From: a virus
Lineage: Duplodnaviria; Caudoviricetes
Direction: 5' to 3' (one strand)
Virus record (IMG/VR): IMGVR_UViG_3300045187_000085
Coordinates: 1-43,400 of that record
Length of the DNA stretch: 43,400 nucleotides
A program made the position numbers and the translations under genes. Below are positions 10,291-36,815 of this stretch, piece after piece. The notes under the pieces are model-generated. The model was not told the DNA's origin, ran no database searches, and saw only the letters and a list, made by a program, of their open reading frames with translations. How positions within the stretch are numbered: the stretch's first letter is position 1; the number at the start of each line of letters is the position of its first letter.

Positions 10291-10821
10291 ATGCCAAGCT
10301 TAAAAGATTTCGTCGAAGCGATGAGCACGTCGTGGCCTGTGGCGCTCGCGATCTTTCTAGGGTCTTCAGCAACACTCATCGGCGAGGCGTATGGGATTGA
10401 ATATCTCGCCACACTTCCAAACTGGCTTCTGGGGACCGCCTTTCTTCTTGCAGTGTTCTCTGGCGCCGTACTCGCAGTGTCCCTGCTCAGGTCGGTCCTT
10501 AGCCAAATTGCGCGCCCGTTCCGAATTAGACGCATACGGAAATGGAAGGCGCAACATATCGAGAAACTTCAGCGTATGCCGACTCAAGAAATCCACGTTC
10601 TGGCATGGGTGGCCGCTCAGAACACTCAGGTCTTCCTAGCACCGCTCAACGACGCAGCCCTCGAACCCTTGATTGCCAAGGGATATGTGGAGATCGTACC
10701 TGGCCACCATTCAGTCCTCGATTGGCCCCACCGAATACCCGATCATGTCTGGGACTTCATGATCAATGAGGTGGCTGGTTGGCCTAACAAAGATCAGATA
10801 GTTCGACCCTTCCGCTATTAG
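10291..10821 (+). CDS. Superinfection exclusion B (SieB)-like membrane protein, moron
   Basis: Two N-terminal TM segments, then KLQRMPTQEIHVLAW...LEPLIAKGYV pattern; antisense to late operon, lower GC. Confidence 0.65.
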   Translation: MPSLKDFVEAMSTSWPVALAIFLGSSATLIGEAYGIEYLATLPNWLLGTAFLLAVFSGAVLAVSLLRSVLSQIARPFRIRRIRKWKAQHIEKLQRMPTQEIHVLAWVAAQNTQVFLAPLNDAALEPLIAKGYVEIVPGHHSVLDWPHRIPDHVWDFMINEVAGWPNKDQIVRPFRY

Positions 10822-11464: not shown

Positions 11465-12688
11465 ATGGCAAACGAGCCAATCATCGACGTGGATCTGGGG
11501 CAGCACAACGGAACGTTGAAATTCTTTTCAACCCAAGAAATCCACGATTTCACACAAAATGAGCAGAATTTTTGGTCTTGGCTTAATTCAAGCCCTGTAA
11601 ATCGACAAATCAAGCAGCCCTGGAATGTTATCTCTCAACATATTTCGCAGATCCAAAACCAACTTCCCGGCTTTGGGGATGGATCCGATGAGGGTAATCG
11701 CGGGTTGATGCAAGACCATCTCCGTCGAGCCTTCCAGAACACGAGGATACCATTGTCTACGTCGCCGGTCGGCGAATTTGTATCGCAATTAAAGGACGAG
11801 TCCCCAACGGTAGCTGCCGCCGCACTCGCTTCATGGATGAACACCGGCGGCCTCGACATTGGTAACTTCGAACACACCAAGGGCGTCATGCTAATGGCGG
11901 CGTTCGATGCAGGGATCAGCAGAAAGACGCCCGCCGCGGTGAAGCGATCGCTGGAAGGGATCCAGAAGCAACTCCAGACAGCGAAGGCGAAGACAGAGAA
12001 GGAAACCAGAGATCAGCGCGACGTCTTCAAGAATGAATTGACCCGCCAGCGGAAATCCGTTGCCAGATCCCTTCGACAAGGGAGACGATTGCTGACTGCC
12101 TTCCGGTCTTCCAAGGATGCACAAGTCAACCAGTCCCTTTCACACCTCGGCGAGCAGGCGATGGCATCGATTGCCAGCATCCAGGAAACCGAGAATCTGT
12201 ATCGCGAGCACATGCGACTGAAAGGGCCGGTTGAGTATTGGTCGCAGAAGGCCGAGGCTCACCGCACGAAAACACTAACCTACCGCAATTTCTTGGTAGG
12301 TTTCTCAGTATTGGCGAGCCTTGCCCTCGTGGGGAGTCTCTATTGGATCGCAGGCCATGCAATCGAGATTGCGACGACTGACAAGCCGCCAGCAGTCTAC
12401 CTAGTCCTCGTCACGCTGGGCGTGGTGCTCACCACAATCGTTTTCTGGGCCGCACGCATCCTGACGCGTTTGTTCCTGAGCGAACACCATCTCGCAATCG
12501 ATGCTGAGGAACGGTCGATAATGGCCCAGACATACCTAGCGCTCACGGCGGAAGGTCAGGCAACAGAGCAGGAACGGGCCATCGTTCTCGGGTCGCTCTT
12601 CCGCCCGACGGCGGACGGGATTGTGAAGGATGACGCGGCACCGGATTTATCGCCGGCCGCCCTGCTGTCACGGCTTGGAGCGCGATAG
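11465..12688 (+). CDS. DUF6161-like coiled-coil and two-TM membrane protein, moron
   Basis: C-terminal HLAIDAEERSIMAQTYLAL...ERAIVLGSLFRPTADGIVKDD; AT-rich upstream region; lower GC. Confidence 0.7.
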   Translation: MANEPIIDVDLGQHNGTLKFFSTQEIHDFTQNEQNFWSWLNSSPVNRQIKQPWNVISQHISQIQNQLPGFGDGSDEGNRGLMQDHLRRAFQNTRIPLSTSPVGEFVSQLKDESPTVAAAALASWMNTGGLDIGNFEHTKGVMLMAAFDAGISRKTPAAVKRSLEGIQKQLQTAKAKTEKETRDQRDVFKNELTRQRKSVARSLRQGRRLLTAFRSSKDAQVNQSLSHLGEQAMASIASIQETENLYREHMRLKGPVEYWSQKAEAHRTKTLTYRNFLVGFSVLASLALVGSLYWIAGHAIEIATTDKPPAVYLVLVTLGVVLTTIVFWAARILTRLFLSEHHLAIDAEERSIMAQTYLALTAEGQATEQERAIVLGSLFRPTADGIVKDDAAPDLSPAALLSRLGAR

Positions 12689-14587: not shown

Positions 14588-14967
14588 CACGCCTCCTCGT
14601 CGCTGCCGACCTTGCCGTCGAGCGGCGCGGGCGGAGGTTCGACAGGATCAGGATCGGCGGCCTTCTGGACGAGGACCGTCACCTCTTTCGCCGGCCAGAT
14701 CAGGTATGTTCCATCGTCGGCCTTCACCCAGAGCTTGTCGGCGTCGCTGGCGATAACTTTGGCTTCAGCGCCGTTCGTCCAGCGGACACGCTCGCCGACG
14801 TCGATCCGTGGCGCGATGAGCGTGACGTGCTCAAGCTTCACCCAGAGCGCGGAGTGGTGGCCTTCGACATCGACAAACACGCGGCCGCTGTCTTCATCAG
14901 GCCGGCAGTCGTGGCGGACCTTGCCGGTCAGGCCGACGACATCGCCGGTGCGGAGGAGCGCGGTCAT
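14587..14967 (-). CDS. Hypothetical protein (tandem SH3/KOW-like segments)
   Basis: Coupled in operon; [10 protein letters not shown] and VGERVRW segments. Confidence 0.65.
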
Positions 14968-15209
14968 GACACCCTCCCGCGCACGATCTTGATGGCGTCG
15001 CCGACGGTGATCGCTGCGTCGGCCTCATCGTCGGGAATCTCGATCCCGAACTCCTCCTCCAGCGCCATGACAACGCAGACGGTATCGAGGCTGTCCGCAT
15101 CGAGGTCGTCGATGATGGACGCGGTGTCGACTACCTTGTCGGGCTCCACGCAGAGCGTGTCGGCGATACGGGACCGAACCCGCTTCGCGATATCGTCCTT
15201 CTCAGTCAT
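14964..15209 (-). CDS. acpP: Acyl carrier protein
   Basis: [28 protein letters not shown]...TVGDAI with the phosphopantetheine DSL serine; GGAG before ATG 15209. Confidence 0.9.
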
Positions 15210-15369
15210 TTCAGGCTTCTCCATTGGGGTTGAGGGTTAGGCGGCGCGACTTTTCATGCATCGCAATCCATGCGGTCTTGAAACTGCCGGCGGGCGACAT
15301 CAGATCAAAGCAAGCCGCAGTGAACTGGCGGCTTAACCGTTGGAATCGTTTGTCAAACGAGAGGGAGCT

Positions 15370-17479: not shown

Positions 17480-17494
17480 AATACATTTCGTATT
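17480..17494. promoter_or_regulatory. Operator-like palindrome AATAC-ATTTC-GTATT overlapping a putative rightward -35 (TTGCAT)
   Basis: Same consensus as the sites in the cro/cI and PL regions. Confidence 0.6.
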
Positions 17495-18347: not shown

Positions 18348-18476
18348 ATGAAGACCGATATTCACGCCACCCGCCGCGACACGTTCGCCAACCGGCCGGA
18401 AGGCCGAGTCCGTCGCGATGAACGCCGCAACGCGCGCACCGCAAAGCAGGCTTTCGCCTTTATGGCGTCGGTGTAG
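18348..18476 (+). CDS. Small basic protein (42 aa)
   Basis: aaggag SD after a hairpin motif; MKTDIHATRRDTF. Confidence 0.55.
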   Translation: MKTDIHATRRDTFANRPEGRVRRDERRNARTAKQAFAFMASV

Positions 18477-18489
18477 GGAGGTGAGCAAT

Positions 18490-18795
18490 ATGGCTTGGGA
18501 AATCGAATCCCGAGGCATCAAGGATGAGATGCTGAAAGAACCTGGCCCGAATGGCCGCTGGCTGTTCCGTATTCAGGAAATGCCCGGCCTTGGCCGCGAC
18601 GCCGTGCCTATCCGGCATACCATCATGGCCGCGCCCGACATGCTGGCGGCGCTGAAGCAGGCCGAGTCCGACCAAATGGCATATGTCGACCGGCTCTATC
18701 GCGACGGGCCTCGCATGGCCGGGAGCCTTGCGGAAGCGCGCGCACGCCTTGCGGCAACTCGTGCCGCCATCGCGAAAGCCGAGGGCGCGGCCTAA
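18490..18795 (+). CDS. Hypothetical phage protein with AAPD(M/L)LAAL...RAAIAKAEG motif
   Basis: ggaggtg SD; motif common in small phage proteins. Confidence 0.7.
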   Translation: MAWEIESRGIKDEMLKEPGPNGRWLFRIQEMPGLGRDAVPIRHTIMAAPDMLAALKQAESDQMAYVDRLYRDGPRMAGSLAEARARLAATRAAIAKAEGAA

Positions 18796-18879
18796 CCCGC
18801 CGCGCCTGCCCCTACCCCTGAAACCGCTCTGCCCGCGCTTCAAGCGCCACGGCGAAGCTATGCCCGAAAGGTCAAAACG

Positions 18880-20217
18880 ATGATTTCTTACACCGCCACC
18901 TATTCGCCCGAAGACAACAAATTGCGCCTTTATGCGTCGTCGCGCCTTGATGCCGAGACTTACCAGCGCGTCAAGGCCGCCGGCTTCGTATGGGCTCCCA
19001 AGCAAGAGCTATTCGTTGCGCCGAAATGGACGCCTGGCCGGGAGGATTTTCTTGTTGAGTTGGCCGGCGAAATCGAGCCGGAAGAGATGACGCTTGCCGA
19101 GCGAGCGCAGGCCAAGGCTGAACGCCTCGACAATCTCGCCCACAAGCGCCACCGGGAGGCCAACGCCTTTCAGCGAGCCGCGCAACAGCTTTCCGAAGGG
19201 TTCAGCGGCGGGCAGCCGATTCTCGTCGGCCATCACTCCGAGCGCAAGGCGATGAAGACGAAAGAGCGCATGGACGCTGCGCAGGAAAAGGCAATCAAGG
19301 CCGCGAAACTGGCTGATTACTGGCTCTATCGCGCCGATGGTGTTGAAGCCCATGCGAACTATAAGAATGATCCGCGCACCCGCGCCCGGCGCATTAAGAC
19401 GTTGCTGGCCGAGCTGCGCGACCTGCAAGGCAATCTCAACAACTGCCATGCCGCGCTAGCGTTTTGGGGTCGTGTCACCGATGACGAGACAATCATCAAA
19501 GCCGCAAGTTATGGCAAGTTCACCAAGTTCGGCGACCACGGCGCACTGGAACGCGGCGAGAAGACGCCGCAAGGTCTACGCGCTGAACGGATCGAAGCTT
19601 ATCAGCGCGCCCTTGATTCCGGATATTATGAACGCTGGATTTCCCATATTCTGAATCGCCTTTCGTATGAGCGCGAATTGCTCGGCAACGTGCCGCGCCA
19701 CGAAGGCGAGTTGCGGGAAACAGCGATTCAGATGTTCGCCCGCGAGCATGGCGCGGAGAAGCCGAAGGCGACGGCAACAGATTTCGGCTTTGTGCTGGAA
19801 TCGCCCGTCCCGCTTCCCGCTCATATCGGCCAAGGCAAGACGCTGGAACTTTCGCCGGACGAATGGCGCGATCTCATGCGGGATTGCGGCTATTCCATCC
19901 CTGACGTGAAGCGCAACGAAAAGGTGGCGATCGTCAACGTCAAGGCCGGCGCCATCATGGTCAACCGTTTCGGCAAGCAACAGGCAATTCCCGTTGTCGA
20001 GATGACCAAGGCCGAATACGGCAAGATTTACGCCGAGCAACGCGGCACCTTCACAAGCGCAGACGGCACGTTCCGCGTGAAGGTCTGCCCGAATCCGAGA
20101 ACTGACGTTCCCCGCTATATGGCGGGATGGTGCGCGGTTTTCCTCACGGATTCGAAGGTTCACCCGACGCCGGATAGCGATTGCATTCTGGCTGAAATGC
20201 CGGAGGCCGCAGCATGA
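18880..20217 (+). CDS. DUF3560 domain protein
   Basis: ATYSPEDNKLRLY, GFVWAPKQELFVAPKWTPGRED, GQPILVGHHSERKA motifs. Confidence 0.85.
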   Translation: MISYTATYSPEDNKLRLYASSRLDAETYQRVKAAGFVWAPKQELFVAPKWTPGREDFLVELAGEIEPEEMTLAERAQAKAERLDNLAHKRHREANAFQRAAQQLSEGFSGGQPILVGHHSERKAMKTKERMDAAQEKAIKAAKLADYWLYRADGVEAHANYKNDPRTRARRIKTLLAELRDLQGNLNNCHAALAFWGRVTDDETIIKAASYGKFTKFGDHGALERGEKTPQGLRAERIEAYQRALDSGYYERWISHILNRLSYERELLGNVPRHEGELRETAIQMFAREHGAEKPKATATDFGFVLESPVPLPAHIGQGKTLELSPDEWRDLMRDCGYSIPDVKRNEKVAIVNVKAGAIMVNRFGKQQAIPVVEMTKAEYGKIYAEQRGTFTSADGTFRVKVCPNPRTDVPRYMAGWCAVFLTDSKVHPTPDSDCILAEMPEAAA

Positions 20218-20819
20218 GCCGCCCCGCGCATTTCAACCGGCCCGACAAGCCCTTGTTTCTGGACAGGCAGCGCCGTGAACGCTTCGGCGATCTGGAGAAG
20301 GTCGAGCTTGTCGAGCCCGTCATGGTCGACCGCGCCACGGAATGCCACGTCACGCCCGGCGACGTCGCGGCCCGCATGGTTGACTATCTCGGCCCGCAAG
20401 GCGACTGGTTGACCTTGGAGCCTAGCGCCGGGACCGGGCAGCTTTCCCGCGCGCTGTTGGCGGCCGGGCATAGCCGATACGAGCTTGTCCAGGTCGAGCG
20501 CCACATAAAGCTTGCGGCCGGGCTTCACGGCTTCGGATCGGTCGTCAATCGCTGCTTTCTGGAATGGGCCGGCGAAGTCGTGGGAAAGGTGGAGTTCCCG
20601 CGGGTCATCATGAACCCGCCATTTAGCGACGTGCGAAAGCATGTCGCGGCGGCGCTATCCCTAATGGGGCGGGGCGGGCACGCCGAGCCGGCGACTCTCG
20701 TCGCCTTGGTGCCGATCACGTTTCAGCACGACGACGCGGAGACGCTGGAAACCCTCCCGCCTGACACGTTCGCAACGGCGAAAGTCCACACCAAGATAAT
20801 CCGGATCGAACGCCGATGA
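20214..20819 (+). CDS. Amino (N6-adenine-type) methyltransferase
   Basis: TP..VAARMV, LEPSAGTG (motif I), IMNPPF (motif IV). Confidence 0.85.
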   Translation: MSRPAHFNRPDKPLFLDRQRRERFGDLEKVELVEPVMVDRATECHVTPGDVAARMVDYLGPQGDWLTLEPSAGTGQLSRALLAAGHSRYELVQVERHIKLAAGLHGFGSVVNRCFLEWAGEVVGKVEFPRVIMNPPFSDVRKHVAAALSLMGRGGHAEPATLVALVPITFQHDDAETLETLPPDTFATAKVHTKIIRIERR

Positions 20820-20959
20820 TCCGCGCCATTCTCTCCGAGCTCGCCGCGGCGAGCTGGCGCGACTGGCTCGCCTGCTTGGCCGAGTTCGCCGGAATGGCCG
20901 TCATTGTCGCGTCAATCGCCCTGATCTGCGTCGGGCTCGCGCCCGATCTGAACCCATAG
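20816..20959 (+). CDS. Small membrane protein (47 aa)
   Basis: Not in ORF track; ATGA-coupled; hydrophobic AGMAVIVASIALICVGLA. Confidence 0.55.
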   Translation: MIRAILSELAAASWRDWLACLAEFAGMAVIVASIALICVGLAPDLNP

Positions 20960-20973
20960 GAGGATTCAGACCA

Positions 20974-21180
20974 ATGTCATTCTCATTCAAAACACAACAG
21001 GCGGTTGTGCCCTATCGCCTGTGGCTTGGCGCTGGCGGCGTTCGCTACCTGCTGCACGGCCAATCGACGCCCGGACACAATAACGGCGTTCCGGTCAAAT
21101 CTGTATCGGAAGCCAAAAGGATTGCGGCCGCTTGGCGTGAAAGCGGTATCCGCGCGCCTTATGATCCGCTCGACGCCTAG
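20974..21180 (+). CDS. Hypothetical protein
   Basis: aggagg SD. Confidence 0.65.
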   Translation: MSFSFKTQQAVVPYRLWLGAGGVRYLLHGQSTPGHNNGVPVKSVSEAKRIAAAWRESGIRAPYDPLDA

Positions 21181-21273
21181 CAGGATTCCAGCCTTCACGG
21201 CCGCCGTTGGTGGCCGTGCGGGGTGCAATCGCACCGCCTGGCAATCGTGCCAACCAACAGAAGGAGTCCAACC

Positions 21274-21690
21274 ATGACGGCAGTTTTCAAGGATTCGGAC
21301 GGCGACTTTCTGCCCGTGCCGCGCGCCCGCTCTATGGCCGCGATTAAGCGCGCCAGCATGACGGCAACACGCGCCCGCCTGAAATCGAGGTCCATATCGG
21401 CCAAGGAACACGCCGCCCTGCGCGCCTATCAGTACGCATTGGCAATGACCGGCAACGAATGCCCGCACTCGATTTCGCTGCGTCGTGAGGCTATTCGCTG
21501 CGTGACATTCGACCTAAATTCCGAAGGCCGCAGCGTCCCGCGCAATGTCTATCTAGGAGGCGCGATTCCGTTCGAGATTCCGAATTGGGATTTCGTGCCG
21601 GAGGAGCCGCGCTTGATTGTGGATCGCCCCGCGTATCGCGCGCCGTCGCATTTCTATTCATCCGCCTCAGCTTTGCAGATGGCCGCCTAG
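21274..21690 (+). CDS. Hypothetical protein
   Basis: aaggag SD after a hairpin motif; start MTAVFKD. Confidence 0.7.
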   Translation: MTAVFKDSDGDFLPVPRARSMAAIKRASMTATRARLKSRSISAKEHAALRAYQYALAMTGNECPHSISLRREAIRCVTFDLNSEGRSVPRNVYLGGAIPFEIPNWDFVPEEPRLIVDRPAYRAPSHFYSSASALQMAA

Positions 21691-21793
21691 CAGCCTCACC
21701 AGCGGGCGCGGGCTGATCTGCGCCCCCCTACACCAGAAACAACGCCAGCGCCCGCCACAGGCCGCGCTTGGCTGAACAGGAAAGGATTCCGAG

Positions 21794-22198
21794 ATGAAGA
21801 CCTATTCTGTCCTGATCGCATGGAACGACAGCGACGACGAAGAAGGCGATTACGGGGCGACTGTGCGCGCCGCCGACCGTGACGAAGCCGAGTCCAAGGT
21901 TCGCGTATTGATGGCCGTTGACGATCAATTCGCAGACGACGGGCCGCGCGAGTATGGCCGCCTGCTCGATTGCACGGAAGGCGCAATGTGGAAGGCTGCC
22001 GATCTGGAGGCCGCATTGCGCGACATGCGCGTCGCCTATGGCCGCCTGCATGACTTCCTGTCCGACGCCATCGAAGGCGGAAGGCTCAAGGAAAGCGACC
22101 TGCCCGACGATTATCTGGCGATCGTCACCCAACTGGAAACCTGCGCCGCTGCCGATCACAAGGCGAAAGCGATCATCGCTGAAATCGACGCGCTCTAA
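21794..22198 (+). CDS. Acidic hypothetical protein
   Basis: aaagga SD; good codon usage. Confidence 0.75.
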   Translation: MKTYSVLIAWNDSDDEEGDYGATVRAADRDEAESKVRVLMAVDDQFADDGPREYGRLLDCTEGAMWKAADLEAALRDMRVAYGRLHDFLSDAIEGGRLKESDLPDDYLAIVTQLETCAAADHKAKAIIAEIDAL

Positions 22199-22239
22199 CC
22201 GTCATCCGCCAATCGTGGCGACCATAAAGGAGAACCCCA

Positions 22240-22725
22240 ATGACCGAACGCAATTTCGACGCCATCGCCTTTTTGTTCGATCTGGTTCAGCCTATGCTGA
22301 CCGAGTTCGATGATTATCGGATCGACGGCGCGCTGAAGGCCGCCAAGGAGCAGCACGCCGCCGCCCTAACGGATTCAGCGATGTTCGACCTGCTTTGCGA
22401 GAGCTTCGACGCATGGAACGGCGAGGAGGTTTCCGTGAAGGAAGAACACGCCGACCTGATCGAGAAGTCAGAAGCATTCATCAATGCCGCACGGCCACGC
22501 TTCTCCGCACCAATCTGCATGGAAGACCTGATAGAGAAGGATGCCGCCGACCGCGCTGCCGATCCCGTCAAGGCTGCGCTGCTCGACTGCATCGGCGCGC
22601 TGTCGGCCAGCATGGATCAAATTCATCAGATGCGCGGCATGTTTGATGATGCAGACGGCACGATTCAGGACGCGCTAGACGCCGCCGAGGATGCGCAGGC
22701 GAAGGCCCGCGAGGCGCTGGCCTGA
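22240..22725 (+). CDS. Acidic helical hypothetical protein
   Basis: aaggag SD after a hairpin motif. Confidence 0.75.
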   Translation: MTERNFDAIAFLFDLVQPMLTEFDDYRIDGALKAAKEQHAAALTDSAMFDLLCESFDAWNGEEVSVKEEHADLIEKSEAFINAARPRFSAPICMEDLIEKDAADRAADPVKAALLDCIGALSASMDQIHQMRGMFDDADGTIQDALDAAEDAQAKAREALA

Positions 22726-22901
22726 TGCGCGCTGTGCTCAAATATGTTCCAGCCCACGGGTTGCTTGTCACACTTTCCGAAGATGGGAAGCCCGAACGTT
22801 CGCGGCTCATCATCAAAGCTGAGCTTGGGAAGGACGTCGGATTGGCGAAGTCCGCAGCTTTCGCCGCCCTTGCCCTTGCTGGCTATTCGGTGGGCGGCTG
22901 A
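22725..22901 (+). CDS. Small hypothetical protein (58 aa)
   Basis: Not in ORF track; TGATG coupling; MRAVLKYVPAHGLLVTL. Confidence 0.5.
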   Translation: MRAVLKYVPAHGLLVTLSEDGKPERSRLIIKAELGKDVGLAKSAAFAALALAGYSVGG

Positions 22902-22903
22902 CC

Positions 22904-23209
22904 ATGACGCGCATATTCGATATGCTGCGGTCGCCTATGGGGGACCGAATGCGCAGATACCGCTACATCAAGATGACGCCGGCCGAGATTTCGGCAGCGC
23001 TCCAACGCACCGGCCTGACCGTCGGCCAGTTCTCGCGGATCATCGGCGCCAGATACAACGGCCCGGACGATTCCACGGTCCAGAAATGGCTGGATGGCAA
23101 GCAGGATGCCCCGACCTATCTCCCGGCCCTGTTCGCGCTCCTTGCCCTTCCTGGGGGCGTAGAGACGGCACGTGAGGCGGCCGAGCGCTATATCGAGGAG
23201 GATTCCTGA
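22904..23209 (+). CDS. XRE-like HTH protein
   Basis: MTPAEISAALQRTGLTVGQFSRIIG...STVQKWLDG. Confidence 0.7.
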   Translation: MTRIFDMLRSPMGDRMRRYRYIKMTPAEISAALQRTGLTVGQFSRIIGARYNGPDDSTVQKWLDGKQDAPTYLPALFALLALPGGVETAREAAERYIEEDS

Positions 23210-25296: not shown

Positions 25297-25469
25297 CAGG
25301 ATTCCACCTCGGCCCGCTCATGCGTGGTGATCCGATGCCCGCACGCTTTGCAGACGCGGCGACGACGGATGCTGCCGGGCGCGAGCCGCGTTTCGGACGT
25401 GCGAAACTCGCCGTGTCCGCACTTCGGGCAATGCAATCCGTTCTGGGCGGATGTGCCGATGGTACTCAT
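25296..25469 (-). CDS. NrdR-N-like zinc-ribbon protein (57 aa)
   Basis: CPKCGH...TSETR....IRRRRVCKACGHRITTHE; ATG at 25469. Confidence 0.75.
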   Translation of the reverse strand: MSTIGTSAQNGLHCPKCGHGEFRTSETRLAPGSIRRRRVCKACGHRITTHERAEVES

Positions 25470-25837
25470 CCCCGCCTCCGCTTCTTGCGCTCGACCACTA
25501 CCTGCTTGCCGCGCTTGGCGAACACGATCTCGGCCGGCTTGTCGCCGAACACGCGCGCCTTCTCGGCCGCCGCGGATTCCTCCTTCTGCTTCCGCCACTC
25601 CTCGATGCCGAGAATATCCGCCTCGACCTCCTCGACGTGCTCGACGCGGATTCGGTTGTTCAGGATTTCCTTCACCCGATCCTTTGCAACGCGGATGGCT
25701 TCCGTCGCGGATTCGCAGAGCACCGGGCGCTTGTCCTTGAAGACCTGGCGCCACTCATCACCATCGAACAGGCGGTAAAGCGGCCGATACTTGCCGCCGA
25801 TCGCCATCGAGCCGAATTCTGGGAGGAAATCGCGCAT
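25466..25837 (-). CDS. Hypothetical protein
   Basis: Coupled between dnaB and the zinc ribbon gene. Confidence 0.7.
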   Translation of the reverse strand: MRDFLPEFGSMAIGGKYRPLYRLFDGDEWRQVFKDKRPVLCESATEAIRVAKDRVKEILNNRIRVEHVEEVEADILGIEEWRKQKEESAAAEKARVFGDKPAEIVFAKRGKQVVVERKKRRRG

Positions 25838-27297
25838 CAGAAGCCCTCCAAGGATTCTTGCTCAACCGGCGCGCGGTCAGATTTGTAACGGGTTAGGCGG
25901 GCCTCGAAGATGAGCCGCTGGCGGACGTGAGGTGATCCGAACCGAACTTTCACCGCGCCGATCTCTGCGATGTCGACTCCATCGTTCCGCACCGCCGACG
26001 GAAAAGCCTTCTCGATCTTCTTCCAATCCGAGTCGCTACTGGCGATCGCCTTCCTCTCCTCGAGGAATTTCAGGAAGCGATAGAGGTAGAAGATCGCATC
26101 GAACGGCGTCTTCGCAGGATCCCCGCCAAACAGGTCCATCGAGATCGGCCGCGGATTGTCGCGCTTCATGCCGAAGCTGTTGCGCTGGTTGAGCACAAGC
26201 CATGCGGCATCCGTCATTTCGGCTCCGGCCTTCAGGATTTGTCCGATACCCTTGGCCTTGGTGCCCTCGTCAGCCCGACGATCTTCGGGCTTCACCACGC
26301 CGATGTGGTCAACCACCACGAACGGCACCTTGTCGTTGCCGCGCCGTTTCACGAAGGTCCGCGCCAGCCCGACGAGTTGCGGCGCTGATTGATCGGTGCA
26401 TTTGATGACCTCGAACGGGACCGAGCCGATCCAGCGGGCGAAGCTCATGCAAGTCTCGAACTCCTTCTCCGACAGCAGCTTTGCGTCCCGCTGCCGACGA
26501 GCCTCGATCTCGTTCTCCTGCGCCACCATCTGACGGATCACCTGATCCGACGATTGGTCAAAGGAGAGGAAGCAGACCGGATGCCCCTTCTTCAGGGCAT
26601 GCAGGATCAACTGGATTGTAAGGGAGGTCTTGCCCTCGCCCGACGAAGACAGCAGCCCGTAGAGGTTTCCCGCCTCGAAGCATGGTTCCGAAATCACCTC
26701 AGCGATTTCGTCGAGAGCGATAGGCACGCCCCTGACTTCGCCTCGCTGGTAGGACATCGACAGGCTGTCGAGGTAGGACTGCCCGGCGTTCTTGATCGGC
26801 GAGGATTTCAGCGCATCGGCGCGGATCGCAGCCATGCGCTCCTCGATCGGCTCGAACGCCTTCAGCGGATTCTCGCCCGGCGCGAGGTTGAAGTAGGTGT
26901 CGACGCCATCCTGAAGCGCGCCGATTGCTTGCCGCGCGACCCACGCATCGAAAATCGCTGCGGCATAATCCGGCGCATTCACCACCGTCACCGCATGCGT
27001 GCAGAGATGGGCGAGATAGCCAGAAACCGTCGCCTCCTGCCCCTCGATCTTCAGACCTTCGACCTTGGCAGGCAGGCTGTTCTTCAGCGTCACCGGGTTT
27101 GCGCCGCGGCCGTTCGCAAGTGACTGGCCGATCACCTCATAGACGCGCTGGTGCAGCGGTTCGTAGAAGTGCTGCGGTTCCAGCAGACGGTTCACCACAT
27201 CGAAAGCGGCGTTATTCAGGAGGATCGCGCCGAGAAGCGCCTGTTCCGCGGGAACGTTCTCGGGAACGGCACGGACGGATGGATCGTGCGCGTTCAT
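25837..27297 (-). CDS. dnaB: DnaB-like replicative helicase
   Basis: PENVPAEQALLGAILL N-domain, Walker A SSGEGKTS, VVVDHIG, LNQ, KVRFG. Confidence 0.9.
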   Translation of the reverse strand: MNAHDPSVRAVPENVPAEQALLGAILLNNAAFDVVNRLLEPQHFYEPLHQRVYEVIGQSLANGRGANPVTLKNSLPAKVEGLKIEGQEATVSGYLAHLCTHAVTVVNAPDYAAAIFDAWVARQAIGALQDGVDTYFNLAPGENPLKAFEPIEERMAAIRADALKSSPIKNAGQSYLDSLSMSYQRGEVRGVPIALDEIAEVISEPCFEAGNLYGLLSSSGEGKTSLTIQLILHALKKGHPVCFLSFDQSSDQVIRQMVAQENEIEARRQRDAKLLSEKEFETCMSFARWIGSVPFEVIKCTDQSAPQLVGLARTFVKRRGNDKVPFVVVDHIGVVKPEDRRADEGTKAKGIGQILKAGAEMTDAAWLVLNQRNSFGMKRDNPRPISMDLFGGDPAKTPFDAIFYLYRFLKFLEERKAIASSDSDWKKIEKAFPSAVRNDGVDIAEIGAVKVRFGSPHVRQRLIFEARLTRYKSDRAPVEQESLEGF

Positions 27298-27842
27298 GCC
27301 ACCACTCCCGCCGCCATCAGGCGGAACTGGTCGCACTTCTTCGCCGTCCAGTAGGCGATAATGCAGGCGTCGCGAGCGTCTTGGTTGGTGGCGACGATCT
27401 TCAACCGCTCACACATTTGCTTCGCGCGCTCCTTCGACGAGCCCTTGATGTCCTTGTCGATCACCGACAGCCACGACTGCGGCCTCACCTCGACGCAGGG
27501 TATGTTTTGGCCGGTGACGCAGATCTGCGCCGCGCCGGCGAGCCGGTTGAGCTGCATCACCGTGCCGGGATTGATTGTGGAGACTTCCTCCTCCTCGCCG
27601 AACATCGTCTTCGACTTCTTGGTGAAGGTCGGAACGATCGAAAGAGGCGCTTCGATGGCACAGAAATCCGGCCGATGCTCGCGGATCAGCTTTGGCAGCT
27701 TCCTTCGCATGTCGGCCACCTTCTCGAAGGCGTTATCCCCGATGAACTGGAGAGCGCCAGAAAGCATCGACGACGGGTCGCGATCGGCATCCCAAACCGC
27801 ATATCCGCACTTCGTTGCCACGTCCAAGGCGAGGATCTTCAT
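27294..27842 (-). CDS. RuvC-like Holliday junction resolvase
   Basis: MKILALDVATKCGYA, AIEAP, VRPQSW, QDARDA. Confidence 0.8.
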   Translation of the reverse strand: MKILALDVATKCGYAVWDADRDPSSMLSGALQFIGDNAFEKVADMRRKLPKLIREHRPDFCAIEAPLSIVPTFTKKSKTMFGEEEEVSTINPGTVMQLNRLAGAAQICVTGQNIPCVEVRPQSWLSVIDKDIKGSSKERAKQMCERLKIVATNQDARDACIIAYWTAKKCDQFRLMAAGVVA

Positions 27843-33432: not shown

Positions 33433-33493
33433 CCTACAAATCGTATTAGACGAATACGCAAAGATTGCGCCCCATGTCAATACCAATCGTATT
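33433..33493. promoter_or_regulatory. OR/PR-like switch region with operator-like sites
   Basis: CCTAC-AAATC-GTATT (33433-33447), AATAC-CAATC-GTATT (33479-33493); minus-strand TTGACA at 33475-33480. Confidence 0.7.
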
Positions 33494-33518
33494 TGAAAAT
33501 ATGCGACGCTCGGCGACC

Positions 33519-34235
33519 ATGAAAAATGACGCGCCGAATCCCGACGAGAACAACCAGCACACCCGTCTTCGAGCCGCCCGTGAGAAGCTGAGGATTTCAG
33601 CCTCGGAAGCCGCACGCTCCATGGGGATGAACATCTCCACCTACACGCATCACGAGAACGGGACGCGGACCTATGGGGAGGAAGAGGCTCGGAAGTACGC
33701 CAGGCGCCTGAAGACCACGCCGGAATATCTTCTGCTTGGCATTACCGGCGGTTCACCAAAGGGAATCGTCAAGGAAATCGACTCTCGGGCCGGCGCTGGC
33801 GGCGGCGGTGTCGTCGATCTCGTGAACGTCACAGATCAGAACGGGAATATAGTTTCGGCCGAGGTCATCAAGGATCACTGGCAGATACCCGAGTCGTTCC
33901 TTCGCGGCGAACTCCGGATGGAGGCGAACCGCGCCCTCATCATCGAGGTCTCCGGTGATTCCGGCTACGATCCGAGCAATCCGAACGCGCCAGGTTCCTT
34001 GATGCCGGGAGACCGGGTGATCGTCGATGCGAGAGATACGAAGCCTTCGCCGCCAGGGCCGTTCCTCGTCTACGACGGCGTCGGGTTCGTCGTGAAGCTT
34101 TGCGAGCCGGTCTTCGGATCTGATCCGCCGCGGATCAGACTGTCGAGCCGCAATCCGACCTATGAACCTTACGACGTGAGTGCTGAAGAAGGGCACATCG
34201 TCGGAAGGGTTCGAGGGCGAATCACGGCGATGTAG
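33519..34235 (+). CDS. cI: CI-like repressor (XRE HTH plus S24 peptidase domain)
   Basis: RLRAAREKLRISASEAARSMGMNISTYTHHENG; AGAGGG cleavage region; VSGDS; VVKL; RLSSRNPTYEP; IVGRV. Confidence 0.92.
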   Translation: MKNDAPNPDENNQHTRLRAAREKLRISASEAARSMGMNISTYTHHENGTRTYGEEEARKYARRLKTTPEYLLLGITGGSPKGIVKEIDSRAGAGGGGVVDLVNVTDQNGNIVSAEVIKDHWQIPESFLRGELRMEANRALIIEVSGDSGYDPSNPNAPGSLMPGDRVIVDARDTKPSPPGPFLVYDGVGFVVKLCEPVFGSDPPRIRLSSRNPTYEPYDVSAEEGHIVGRVRGRITAM

Positions 34236-34243
34236 CCGTAACT

Positions 34244-34255
34244 GGGGGGGGGGGG
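34244..34255 (+). repeat. G12 homopolymer tract
   Basis: Read directly, 6 nt before ATG 34262. Confidence 0.85.
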
Positions 34256-34261
34256 ACTCGC

Positions 34262-34588
34262 ATGACGAGGATAGTGGTCGAGACCAAAGTGAAGTTCACT
34301 GCTGCGGGAGGCATCGGGGCTTTGCTATTCGTCGCTGCGCCCGCCGTTTTGGCGTTCATGGCCCTGGACGATATCCGGTATGGATATGGAAGAATGACAA
34401 GCTTCGCGGCGGCTGGCTACTTCATCTTCGCAGGCATAGCCGCTTCTCTTGGACTCGTGCTTCTTATGATTGGGCGGGAATACACCCACGAGGTGCAAAT
34501 CCTGAAACCTGGTGAGACCGCGCCAAAGGATAATGTCCCACCTTTCGGCGGCACCGAAGCCGAACGACGCAACCTTGGCCTGAAGTGA
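34262..34588 (+). CDS. Two-TM membrane protein downstream of cI
   Basis: Two hydrophobic segments; immunity-region position. Confidence 0.7.
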   Translation: MTRIVVETKVKFTAAGGIGALLFVAAPAVLAFMALDDIRYGYGRMTSFAAAGYFIFAGIAASLGLVLLMIGREYTHEVQILKPGETAPKDNVPPFGGTEAERRNLGLK

Positions 34589-34934: not shown

Positions 34935-35426
34935 TCACGCGAAAAGGGCAACTAGCCCCGCAAGAACCGCCGCCGCTGGCGTCCACATACCGACTTGGAC
35001 AGCGGTATGGAGCGCCGCGGCAGTCTTCTCATTCAGATCACGATTGACATCCTGCTTCTGATGAAGCTCCGAGAGATAGGCGCCAACGGCCTTGTCGATC
35101 GTGACACGCTCATCCATTGCCCATAGCCAGAACTCCGCGCCTCGGCCAGGGAGATTGATCGTCGCCCGAGACATCGCTTTGGTGCAGAAGTAGGCGCCGA
35201 TCGCCAACATCAACGCAGATGTCGACATAGACCAGCGCGAAAACTGAAGAAGTTCATCTGAACGAAAGAACCCGGCCGTAGCTGTCACGGCCGCAGCGAC
35301 GCCGATGGTGACATATATCCGAAACACCGCCATCGCCTTCTGGTCGGTGAAGAGCACAAGGTTGACCAGAGCCTGATGACGCGCCCTTGCGTCGTCCAGT
35401 GCGATTTTGAGATCGTCGGGCTTCAT
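34935..35426 (-). CDS. Three-TM membrane protein, moron-like
   Basis: gagagg SD before MKPDDLK; SLATT-like topology. Confidence 0.7.
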   Translation of the reverse strand: MKPDDLKIALDDARARHQALVNLVLFTDQKAMAVFRIYVTIGVAAAVTATAGFFRSDELLQFSRWSMSTSALMLAIGAYFCTKAMSRATINLPGRGAEFWLWAMDERVTIDKAVGAYLSELHQKQDVNRDLNEKTAAALHTAVQVGMWTPAAAVLAGLVALFA

Positions 35427-35931
35427 GGCTACCTCTCGCGTAGACGCCAAGTTCTGAAACGTCTCAGAATCTTGAACTTTGAATCTTCTATATCAAGAGC
35501 TTGATTCTGAGAGGTCTCAGAACCGCCTCTGTTCTCTATCCCGCAAGGGATAGGGGCTTAGGAAACGGCGCAGTACACCCTTGCACGCCGGAAGCGATCC
35601 GACGCCAAGGGTACTGCATAGAGCCAAGGACAGAGCCTTGAGGTTCCCGTATGCATCCCCGCATCGCGCCATATGACGGCGCATAGCCCCTGCGGATCAT
35701 GGTCCGTTTCTATTGGCCGGGGTGGCCTCACGCGCCGGGTTCGGACTCCCGTGGTGGCATGCGCGCCCTTCTGGTTGTTTATCAACGGCTGACCAGCCAG
35801 CCCAGCGGTTCCCATCTTTCCACCGATTCCCTCCGGGCAGCATCCAAACCGCAAACCCACTCCCGAAGGAAACTGGCCTGAAAATCAACGTTTGGCTTGA
35901 GAAATCGAGTGGGACGCTATATGTTGTGCCC

Positions 35932-36012
35932 ACTGGATATTCCCGGTCGCCAAACCAGTTTCTCATCCAGTCATGCCCCGATCGCTTGCCGGCGATGCGG
36001 GGCTTTCTTTTT
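35932..36012 (+). ncRNA. Candidate about 80-nt antisense RNA with CGCCAA loop
   Basis: TTGAGA-17nt-TATGTT promoter (35897-35925); stem ACTGGAT/ATCCAGT with inner GGT-CGCCAA-ACC; terminator hairpin plus U-tract. Confidence 0.6.
35975..36012 (+). terminator. Intrinsic terminator
   Basis: GCCCCG-ATCGC-loop-GCGAT-GCGGGGC-TTTCTTTTT. Confidence 0.75.
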
Positions 36013-36053
36013 GCGCCCGATCGGCCGCCCTCGTCAAGTATGCGTATCAATTT

Positions 36054-36094
36054 CATACTTTTCGTATTGACACAACAAATACGGCTCGTATTAT
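36054..36094 (+). promoter_or_regulatory. PL/OL-like promoter with two operator-like sites
   Basis: TTGACA (36067-72)-16nt-TATTAT (36089-94); CATAC-TTTTC-GTATT and AATAC-GGCTC-GTATT. Confidence 0.75.
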
Positions 36095-36581
36095 CGCCCT
36101 CGTTCACCCCAGCCACGAAGAAGCGCACCGCGCCGATCTGTCTGGGATCAATCGAGGAGCAAGAGATGCTTTCCGTCAGCACTGGAGGTCGAGATGTAAG
36201 CCGCAGCGCAGAGCGCGCGCCCTTTGGGCTGGATCAGTTCGATCGCCTGGCTGGAGGCGTAATTCCAGCCCCCAATTCTTCAAACCCCGACCCCCGAACC
36301 TTGGCTGGCGCCGACGGCCGCCGGAGCACACCAAGCCTGCTTGCTGTGGGGGCAAAAAGCGATGGCGCTAGTCCGCTGTCGTCGGTCGGGGCCGCTTCCG
36401 AGCGGAACGTGGGTGTCCACGAAAGCAGGCAAGCCGTCCCCTATTCCCATTCGCAGGTTCCGTCCCCCCGGCCTGCGGATAAGCCGGAGGCGGATACTCT
36501 CCTCCCATCCGTCTCCGGCGCCTATTCCCCTTGGCAGGTCCAGCGCCCGCACCTTGAGCCTATGGCGAGGAGGGCGAGCGA

Positions 36582-36815
36582 ATGAGCGTCCGTGTCGTCA
36601 ACGACTTCGTGCCCCATTGGGACAACAACCATGAGGGCTACCGCGCGATCTTCAATGCGGCGCTGACCGGCATCTGCGCGAACCCGAATTTCTTCGGCCC
36701 AATCCTTCAAGGAAGCCCAGAGGCGGCAGTCAATTTCGCCAATGAGGTCACGCTCGCTGCGATCTACGGCGACAAGTACGTGCCGTCCCACGAGCGCGAT
36801 GGAGAAAAATCATGA
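36582..36815 (+). CDS. Hypothetical protein
   Basis: gaggag SD; PL operon. Confidence 0.7.
   Translation: MSVRVVNDFVPHWDNNHEGYRAIFNAALTGICANPNFFGPILQGSPEAAVNFANEVTLAAIYGDKYVPSHERDGEKS

Follow-up and report, generated by a model that had tools for sequence, protein, structure and literature searches.

A conserved non-coding element as a probable RNA-dependent lytic replication origin in temperate phages of Alphaproteobacteria

Between the accessory genes that follow cI and a PL-type promoter at 36067, a provirus from IMG/VR (record IMGVR_UViG_3300045187_000085, estimated to be 54% complete; the whole stretch analysed, positions 1 to 43,400, is called the window) contains a gene-free stretch that proved to be a real, conserved and uncatalogued element. 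This stretch is probably a lytic replication origin of the phage that depends on RNA, the RNA taking over the origin-opening job of a mini-initiator protein. A first-pass annotation of this DNA had proposed an initiator-independent, antisense-controlled RNA origin. Its proposal is supported by the exchange of RNA and initiator at one slot, by their mutual exclusion in 27 of 27 near-complete records, and by the finding of headless initiators together with the RNA. We also lean, with less assurance, towards a wider reading, in which a large group of integrating temperate phages of Alphaproteobacteria split a lambda O-type initiator and repeatedly swapped its DNA-binding half, together with the iterons, for at least four dissimilar RNAs; the RNA would then be a repressor-controlled lytic initiator, handing the origin over to a helicase or to a headless domain.

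Results

Genes around the element

The right early operon of the window ends in a resolvase and a DnaB-like helicase; the window also contains head genes, a CI-like repressor (33465..34235, + strand; phrog_4, E 3e-21) and a left early operon with RecT. The PL-type promoter of this early recombination operon, TTGACA-16-TATTAT (36067..36094, + strand), has 11 of 12 consensus matches and is followed by a RecT-like gene. GC skew turns near 36-37 kb, where gene direction turns as well. Over PL lie two operator-like sites AATAC-N5-CGTATT (36054..36092), predicted repressor sites beside the leftward promoter described below; sites of this type are found at 36054, 36078, 33433, 33479 and 17480, and occur also before cI. 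The site at 17480-17494 precedes a plus-strand block (18400-23200) that has many small genes besides DUF3560 and a methyltransferase and may be another early operon under repressor control. To the left of the element, the accessory membrane-protein gene (34935..35426, − strand; 163 aa, phrog_25606) is variable cargo outside the conserved unit, and unrelated genes take its place in relatives.

The helicase (25837..27336, − strand), the predicted partner of the origin, has no primase domain according to its profile matches: the primase/helicase profile phrog_239 matched over its helicase part alone in 64 of 65 records. Its named relatives come mostly from Mesorhizobium, Nitratireductor, Chelativorans and Phyllobacterium. 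A 123-aa gene (25466..25837, − strand) directly follows it, and most loci of the clade have a 90-125-aa gene there; profile searches returned no named family for it and the Atlas gave no function, and a loader is our guess. No profile match to an initiator or a primase was obtained in the window of this 54% complete record, in agreement with the first-pass annotation, which had recognised neither.

In four sequencing runs labelled as RNA, coverage was even over all 12 kb and extended to genes that should be silent, a pattern that looks like DNA.

A structured core read leftward

The core of the element, which we call type W, covers about 300 nt (35529..35828, − strand). Homologs were collected by a helicase search by alignment (66 loci) and three pattern searches, which gave 14 loci, 12 of them distinct. 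In the alignment, 17 of 46 pairs had two-sided changes and 92.7% of the cells were paired, a value equalled in 0 of 500 shuffles, with the reservations that 7 long-range pairs of the 53 predicted had been dropped beforehand, that the structure comes from the same alignment and that kinship was ignored; slid controls gave 35-49% paired. The long stem pointed out at first pass is real and covarying: the helix at 35570..35617 (− strand) is the last long hairpin of the core (helix 9), with 13 pairs, 5 of them with two-sided changes, and 93% paired. Strand bias favoured the leftward RNA, with 109 G-U and 4 C-A combinations versus 69 and 32. The predicted long leftward RNA (35529..36008, − strand, about 470 nt, with ends deduced from where the promoter lies and where conservation stops) folds with z = −2.6, and 0 of 100 shuffles were as stable.

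The earlier reading that the stretch has no convincing open reading frame held: no ORF of the element is conserved, and it is non-coding by length and codon-position tests, since the length difference from the window breaks the frame in 7 of 11 homologs and third codon positions are no more variable than the others. Type W has no Rfam match, and BLAST of the region against phages and plasmids (72,556 plasmid records) gave no usable match.

Downstream of the core, an AT-richer palindrome cluster had been noticed, and it is there: two 18-bp palindromes (35452-35469 and 35505-35522), both built from TCTGAR/YTCAGA, flank a 65-68% AT tract within 35451..35523, the predicted unwinding and helicase-loading segment. 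TCTGAR/YTCAGA occurs downstream of 13/15 initiator cassettes, 9/17 type G elements (see below) and 5/10 type W elements versus 7% of background windows, for a motif that was picked after inspection and among related sequences; CTCAGA is the top 6-mer among those enriched in both cassette sets.

An optional antisense unit over the 5′ end

The promoter-hairpin-terminator unit claimed by the first-pass annotation is present in all its parts. The promoter scan predicts an antisense-RNA promoter TTGAGA(35897)-17-TATGTT(35925) (35897..35925, + strand), and in 8/8 homologous modules a TTG-led hexamer stands, as read by eye, 16-17 nt before a TA-led hexamer. The predicted small antisense RNA, about 82 nt long (35931..36012, + strand; from fold and conservation), comprises a hairpin with a CGCCAA loop (35948-35953), then an intrinsic terminator with a U-tail running to 36012. 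Its fold has z = −2.9, none of 200 shuffles being as stable, and the two hairpins are kept in all 8 homologous modules.

CGCCAA and UUGGCG are the loops of R1 CopA/CopT and of ColIb-P9 Inc/repZ, and a kissing-loop kinship with these had been put forward. The loop is indeed in the window and in 6/8 homologous modules. It carries little weight: the hexamer alone is uninformative because the window holds 55 copies of it, both strands counted, and 6/8 modules keep it. Unlike CopA/CopT and Inc/repZ, moreover, the element has no rep leader as target, since no conserved ORF follows and the downstream gene is variable cargo.

An opposing promoter had also been suggested. Its −35 element, CTTGACG, does exist on the minus strand (36032..36038), back to back with PL, and its TGAC is invariant in 8/8 modules; the matching −10, CAAAAA (36013-36008), is weak and non-consensus, and a consensus scan made no call. 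A TTG-led hexamer with like spacing was also seen by eye before type W elements that lack the module, before type H elements and before mini-initiator genes.

The 600 bp are not a single module, as was first thought. The first homolog found (G001) has only 35872-36040 in common with the window, with a different sequence to the left. The antisense unit is found ahead of 7 of the 12 distinct type W sequences and also ahead of two type G elements, a different kind of element, which is why we consider the stretch as two separable parts, a leftward structured element and an optional antisense unit lying over its 5′ end. Short patterns were of little use for finding homologs: an exact 15-mer loop search gave 119 loci, of which 1 was a true homolog and the remainder chance or other elements, and a 16-base terminator pattern gave 8 matches, with the same single true homolog.

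Folding of the leftward RNA predicts an alternative long hairpin (35871..35972, − strand), in which the UUUGGC loop region pairs with a downstream GCCAAAC and so hides the antisense target. Its predicted stability exceeds that of the loop-retaining fold by 12 kcal/mol. In prefix folding, the loop hairpin was present at 75-105 nt and lost from 115 nt. A similar hairpin is predicted in 7/8 modules, partly via changed sequence, and in L286 only in part. The complement of the antisense promoter is a possible pairing partner of the loop region in the leftward RNA.

On the other side of the promoters, the PL leader (36095-36585, + strand, about 490 nt) is non-coding and partly conserved in G001 (75-81%); it has two hairpins with CCUCCUCCC-like loops at 36443-36527, matching CcsR1 (E 1.4e-4) and ar14 (E 0.004), both below gathering scores.

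RNA element or mini-initiator in the same slot

In phages sharing the helicase, the slot to the left of PL is filled in one of two ways, by a mini-initiator and its repeat pair or by a structured element that is non-coding. For the survey, 70 records were assembled, 5 short fragments were left out, and the 65 others were searched with four initiator profiles. Thirty-eight were RNA-type (W 7, G 16, H 14, K 1) and 20 initiator-type, with G043, probably two prophages, counted once and with three of the 20 initiators found solely with a custom profile; the slot position of the initiators was read directly for 10 records and deduced from strand and helicase distance for the other 10. Among the remainder, G050 is weakly H-like, five records end before the slot, and G021 has the helicase and neither cassette. 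Its slot (L160:1250-1450), with no winged-helix ORF and no known RNA type, shows short GTGCAC/GTATGCAC repeats and an A-rich tract.

The mini-initiator ORFs encode winged-helix proteins of 100-135 aa (two of about 300 aa); a repeat pair lies downstream of them, as does an AT-rich tract. HTH_36 matched 10 of 14 slot ORFs and PHROG initiator families matched 12 of 14, over their N-terminal part. The iteron-like repeat pair beat all 100 shuffles at 17 of 18 initiator loci, the test window having been placed by hand for two loci. Two profile matches were rejected upon reading, one in G017 (LexA-like N-terminal domain) and one in G033 (an HTH gene of 88 aa that belongs to the left operon and lacks repeats). 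Weak HTH_36 matches below the cut-off were present in five non-initiator records (G009, G018, G022, G027 and G031) and in G060.

Completeness was at least 90% in 27 records. Of these, 18 had the RNA only, 9 the initiator only, and none had both or neither (Fisher p 2e-7, kinship ignored). Exclusion at the level of the slot is expected, because one locus holds one cassette; the weight of the result thus rests on the absence of initiators elsewhere, and profile searches can miss divergent ones. One such case is G069, where an intact type G element goes with a 234-aa O-like protein with a repeat-bearing middle that the phrog_270 and HTH_36 profiles missed. The 65-record set includes 7 type W records, none of which gave an initiator match. 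A DUF1376 search, which found nothing in 69 records, was equally negative in controls and so does not discriminate.

A quick maximum-likelihood tree built from 55 helicases requires 15 changes in the state of the slot, 13 of them being forced by well-supported branches, and states clustered no more strongly than shuffled labels (145/500). The helicases of G045 (RNA) and G052 (initiator) are only 0.002 changes per site apart. The same layout, with no annotated initiator, was found in an annotated Pseudochrobactrum prophage and in the complete phage Yong-M2-251. A tyrosine integrase match was obtained in 29 of the 45 records tested, including the type W records G003, G038, G040 and G057. Matches in plasmids were limited to large replicons, and the one examined was a prophage with the same layout; the plasmid searches found no Rep-less plasmid with these elements.

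Other RNA types in the slot

Types G, H and K, as well as an H-like variant (L141:665-935, L171:3223-3733, L150:201-620 and L189:4900-5450), are non-coding elements occupying the same place and strand as type W in helicase-sharing phages. Rfam gave no match to G, H or K. Type K is known from a single case, and covariation results cover types W and G only. In 17 aligned type G sequences, 22 of 43 pairs had two-sided changes, and G-U pairs favoured one strand, as in type W. Features of type G include a GGGUAGGGG tract, a hairpin GGUGCAACUCC resembling a T-loop, and a covarying direct repeat of 7-9 nt (0 of 10,000 permutations, kinship not controlled); GGGTAGGGG is present in 17/17. Type W has no G-tract, and covariation of a direct repeat was not upheld for it. 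Some type W sequences start with the first hairpin of type G.

Two genomes deposited as Synechococcus phages, OM868082 (L135:5130-5398) and PP438429, have the helicase and a type G element, both of which were elsewhere met in rhizobial prophages; the recorded host may not be the true one.

Headless initiators in phages picked by their RNA

An independent set was chosen through the RNA. A type G pattern gave 43 loci, of which 12, lying in records already used, were dropped; the 31 new loci (30 type G, 1 type W), taken together with 4 loci of type W, correspond to 35 records. A DnaB-like gene was present in 18 of the 35, none of which had an initiator match better than E 7.9e-4. Twelve of the 17 DnaB-less records had instead a stand-alone ORF of 118-139 aa matching only the C-terminal part of initiator profiles (L368-L379, e.g. 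L377:1470-1829), hereafter a headless initiator. These ORFs, one of them in a type W record (G104), match no Pfam HTH and no Pfam family, sit by eye shortly after a resolvase-like ORF, and are preceded by a repeat above shuffles at only 1 of the 12 loci. On phrog_270 the mini-initiators cover roughly positions 20-125 and the matching headless ORFs 170-277; judging from this coverage, mini-initiator and headless ORF appear to be the two halves of one protein. As for the other DnaB-less records, in G070 a full initiator lies in an apparent separate prophage, at a distance of 36 kb from the RNA; G070 and G072 have short ORFs which resemble headless initiators by eye and give no profile match; and three more are fragments.

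Discussion

How the element may work

We propose that the leftward promoter is silent in the lysogen, because it adjoins what we take as CI operators, and fires on induction. The nascent RNA of about 470 nt would expose its UUUGGC loop first and then refold into the long hairpin. The antisense RNA of about 82 nt is predicted to bind only in the interval before refolding, and to misfold or stop leaky transcripts; it would thereby silence leaky transcription in the lysogen, or limit initiation. That the antisense unit is optional would fit CI repression as the main control. Once folded, the RNA may re-anneal to its template near 35530 as an R-loop, exposing the AT-rich TCTGAG segment, where the phage DnaB-like helicase would load. 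In helicase-less relatives, the headless initiator domain would recruit the host helicase. R-loop origins are known in the lytic phage T4. Because nearly identical helicases serve both cassettes, the RNA most likely takes over the opening of the origin, through an R-loop beside the AT-rich segment. Whether the end of the RNA also primes synthesis after cleavage by RNase H, as in ColE1, seems to us about equally likely either way.

The role here would be lytic, since an integrase is found in 29/45 records and the lysogen is predicted to keep the promoter repressed.

Other explanations

The element could be an origin acting as DNA, with transcription merely melting the region or with single-stranded hairpins forming an assembly site for the helicase or primosome. 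By itself, the genome comparison shows no more than a need for this slot as a substitute for an initiator, and single-stranded DNA can also yield hairpin covariation, a point made for plasmid motifs (PMC5737381). Against this, the G-U pairs of types W and G point to one strand, and an antisense unit with its own promoter and terminator, as well as a conserved refolding switch, are sensible only at the RNA level, so that we hold this explanation to be unlikely. Slightly less so is a stand-alone non-coding RNA, involved in immunity, defence or the lysis-lysogeny choice and located at a cargo hotspot, the origin and initiator being unrecognised or replaced by host proteins. The slot does adjoin variable accessory genes, it accommodates four dissimilar RNA types, and in G069 an O-like protein accompanies the RNA element. 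Such an RNA would, however, leave unexplained why 18/18 near-complete RNA-type records are without an initiator versus 9/9 others with one, and why 12 RNA-bearing records keep only the C-terminal domain of the initiator.

The RNA might also be a long leader controlling the membrane gene through antisense binding, in the manner of a type I toxin-antitoxin system or of attenuation. This gene is downstream and on the same strand, and the predicted interval for antisense binding is attenuator-like. Yet the downstream gene is unrelated from phage to phage, even between carriers of the same RNA type, so that the toxin-antitoxin alternative raised at first pass is unsupported; the membrane gene is missing or replaced in the close type W homologs L286, L287 and L292; the product, with 163 aa, is neither a short toxin nor conserved among carriers; and 5 of the 12 type W sequences lack the antisense unit. 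We regard a leader function as very unlikely. The smallest chance is given to an immunity RNA of the P1 c4 or P4 CI type acting on an antirepressor message. The promoter region of the small RNA is complementary to its 5′ half (GTTTGGC/GCCAAAC and AGTGGG/CCCACT), c4 has complementarity of this kind with its target 1, and a GGTCGCCAAACC hairpin is also found in two loci that are c4-like by eye (L001 and L117). In P1 c4 and P4 CI a second target lies before the icd or kil-antirepressor genes. No convincing second target came out of a duplex scan and a motif search in the window (record 54% complete), there is no Rfam C4 match, and the long hairpin of the leftward RNA accounts for the complementarity.

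Comparison with known systems

In ColE1, the primer undergoes alpha-beta refolding, and a G-rich tract and a repeated sequence seed a persistent hybrid. The element resembles ColE1 in that a short, terminated antisense RNA overlaps the 5′ end of a long RNA, with the antisense promoter inside the long RNA (predicted here), in a predicted window of co-transcriptional refolding, and in having no initiator encoded by the element (in a window 54% complete). It differs in that neither Rfam nor plasmid BLAST gave a match to RNA I or RNA II, in that type W has no G-tract, and in that ColE1 encodes no helicase. What finds support in the first-pass proposal is an RNA-based origin under antisense control; a ColE1-type primer working with Pol I and RNase H is less well supported. 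Type W has neither homology to ColE1 nor a G-tract, and the phages keep a helicase of their own or a domain that likely recruits one. Two hairpins are present in 8/8 modules, versus three stem-loops in RNA I of ColE1 (PMC3035462). The predicted refolding switch follows the same logic as in pMB1, where the antisense RNA binds co-transcriptionally and alters how the primer folds (PMC11870631).

The layout seems closest to that of the MRB plasmid origins. MRB origins of Vibrionaceae, of the pB1067 type, are regions of about 500 bp without ORF or iterons, in which a two-hairpin RNA I of about 68 nt is antisense to the 5′ part of an RNA II of about 465 nt; no consensus promoter is reported there for RNA II, and the RNA I unit is common to origins whose remaining sequence differs (PMC3035462). 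The likeness lies in a two-hairpin RNA with a U-tail (about 82 nt here versus about 70) in an ORF-free region of about 500 bp. The differences are several: no homology to the 110-bp RNA I core was found in 72,556 plasmid records or in Rfam, and we deal with an integrating temperate phage of Alphaproteobacteria and not a Vibrionaceae plasmid, with a promoter beside repressor operators, an optional antisense unit, and a phage helicase or headless initiator that is kept.

Some cluster A mycobacteriophages with parABS have non-RepA, RNA-based origins that maintain an extrachromosomal prophage, and lytic growth is reported to be unaltered upon deletion of repA in Miko (PMC7157519). There, as here, a non-coding RNA region would be the origin of a phage whose relatives use a protein initiator; parABS replaces integration in these phages (PMC7157519), whereas here a tyrosine integrase is found in 29/45 records. 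The ARRPOF and PAGEV plasmid motifs, structured RNAs of 220-350 nt tied to Rep-independent replication regions (PMC5737381), differ in being plasmid motifs: types W, G, H and K have no Rfam match and occur in prophages. The element belongs to none of these families, whether ColE1, MRB, the non-RepA mycobacteriophage origins or ARRPOF/PAGEV, the closest precedents being, as it appears from layout and role, the MRB plasmids and the non-RepA mycobacteriophage origins.

Initiators of the lambda O type go with an iteron origin and correspond to PHROG families 270, 391 and 678. The alternative slot cassette resembles them, consisting of the N-terminal winged-helix part followed by repeats and an AT-rich tract. 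In contrast to lambda, the initiator is split here, its DNA-binding half lying left of PL or being replaced by RNA, and delivery of the helicase, by a DnaB-like gene or a C-terminal domain, stays in the right operon.

RNA-initiated replicons have been known from a few plasmid families and from plasmid-like mycobacteriophage prophages. We found no RNA origin in integrating or alphaproteobacterial phages in the open-access literature, and supplements of RNA-motif screens and subscription journals could list such motifs. An RNA origin that serves ordinary integrating phages in their lytic cycle, and that can be swapped for a protein initiator with hardly any change in the helicase, is apparently new. 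If the wider reading is true, RNA and protein initiators are plug-compatible parts of one lytic replicon, and headless initiators are a genomic marker of hidden RNA origins. An RNA origin of this kind would explain the many rhizobial prophages that have a helicase or a truncated initiator and no origin-binding protein. Four RNA folds are new to Rfam, the pairs G045/G052, G011/G010 and G017/G019 are natural swaps for studying origin opening by RNA, and the elements may yield small inducible replicons for rhizobia.

Additional observations

A different conserved non-coding element was noticed in high-GC phage contigs (L004, L039, L068, L070, L075, L087, L096, L104 and L115), with a promoter-like sequence, one or two GGTCGCCAAACC hairpins and further conserved stems. 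In L001 and L117, GGTTTGGCGACC and GGTTCGCCAACC pair in the leader before a gene that by eye is antirepressor-like, a layout which we take to be c4-like. Among the accessory genes of the window, 10291-10821 gave a weak SieB match (E 3e-5), 11465-12688 matched DUF6161 and 14964-15224 an acyl carrier protein. Finally, a run of 12 G at 34244-34255, directly before a 108-aa membrane ORF at 34262, could allow phase variation.
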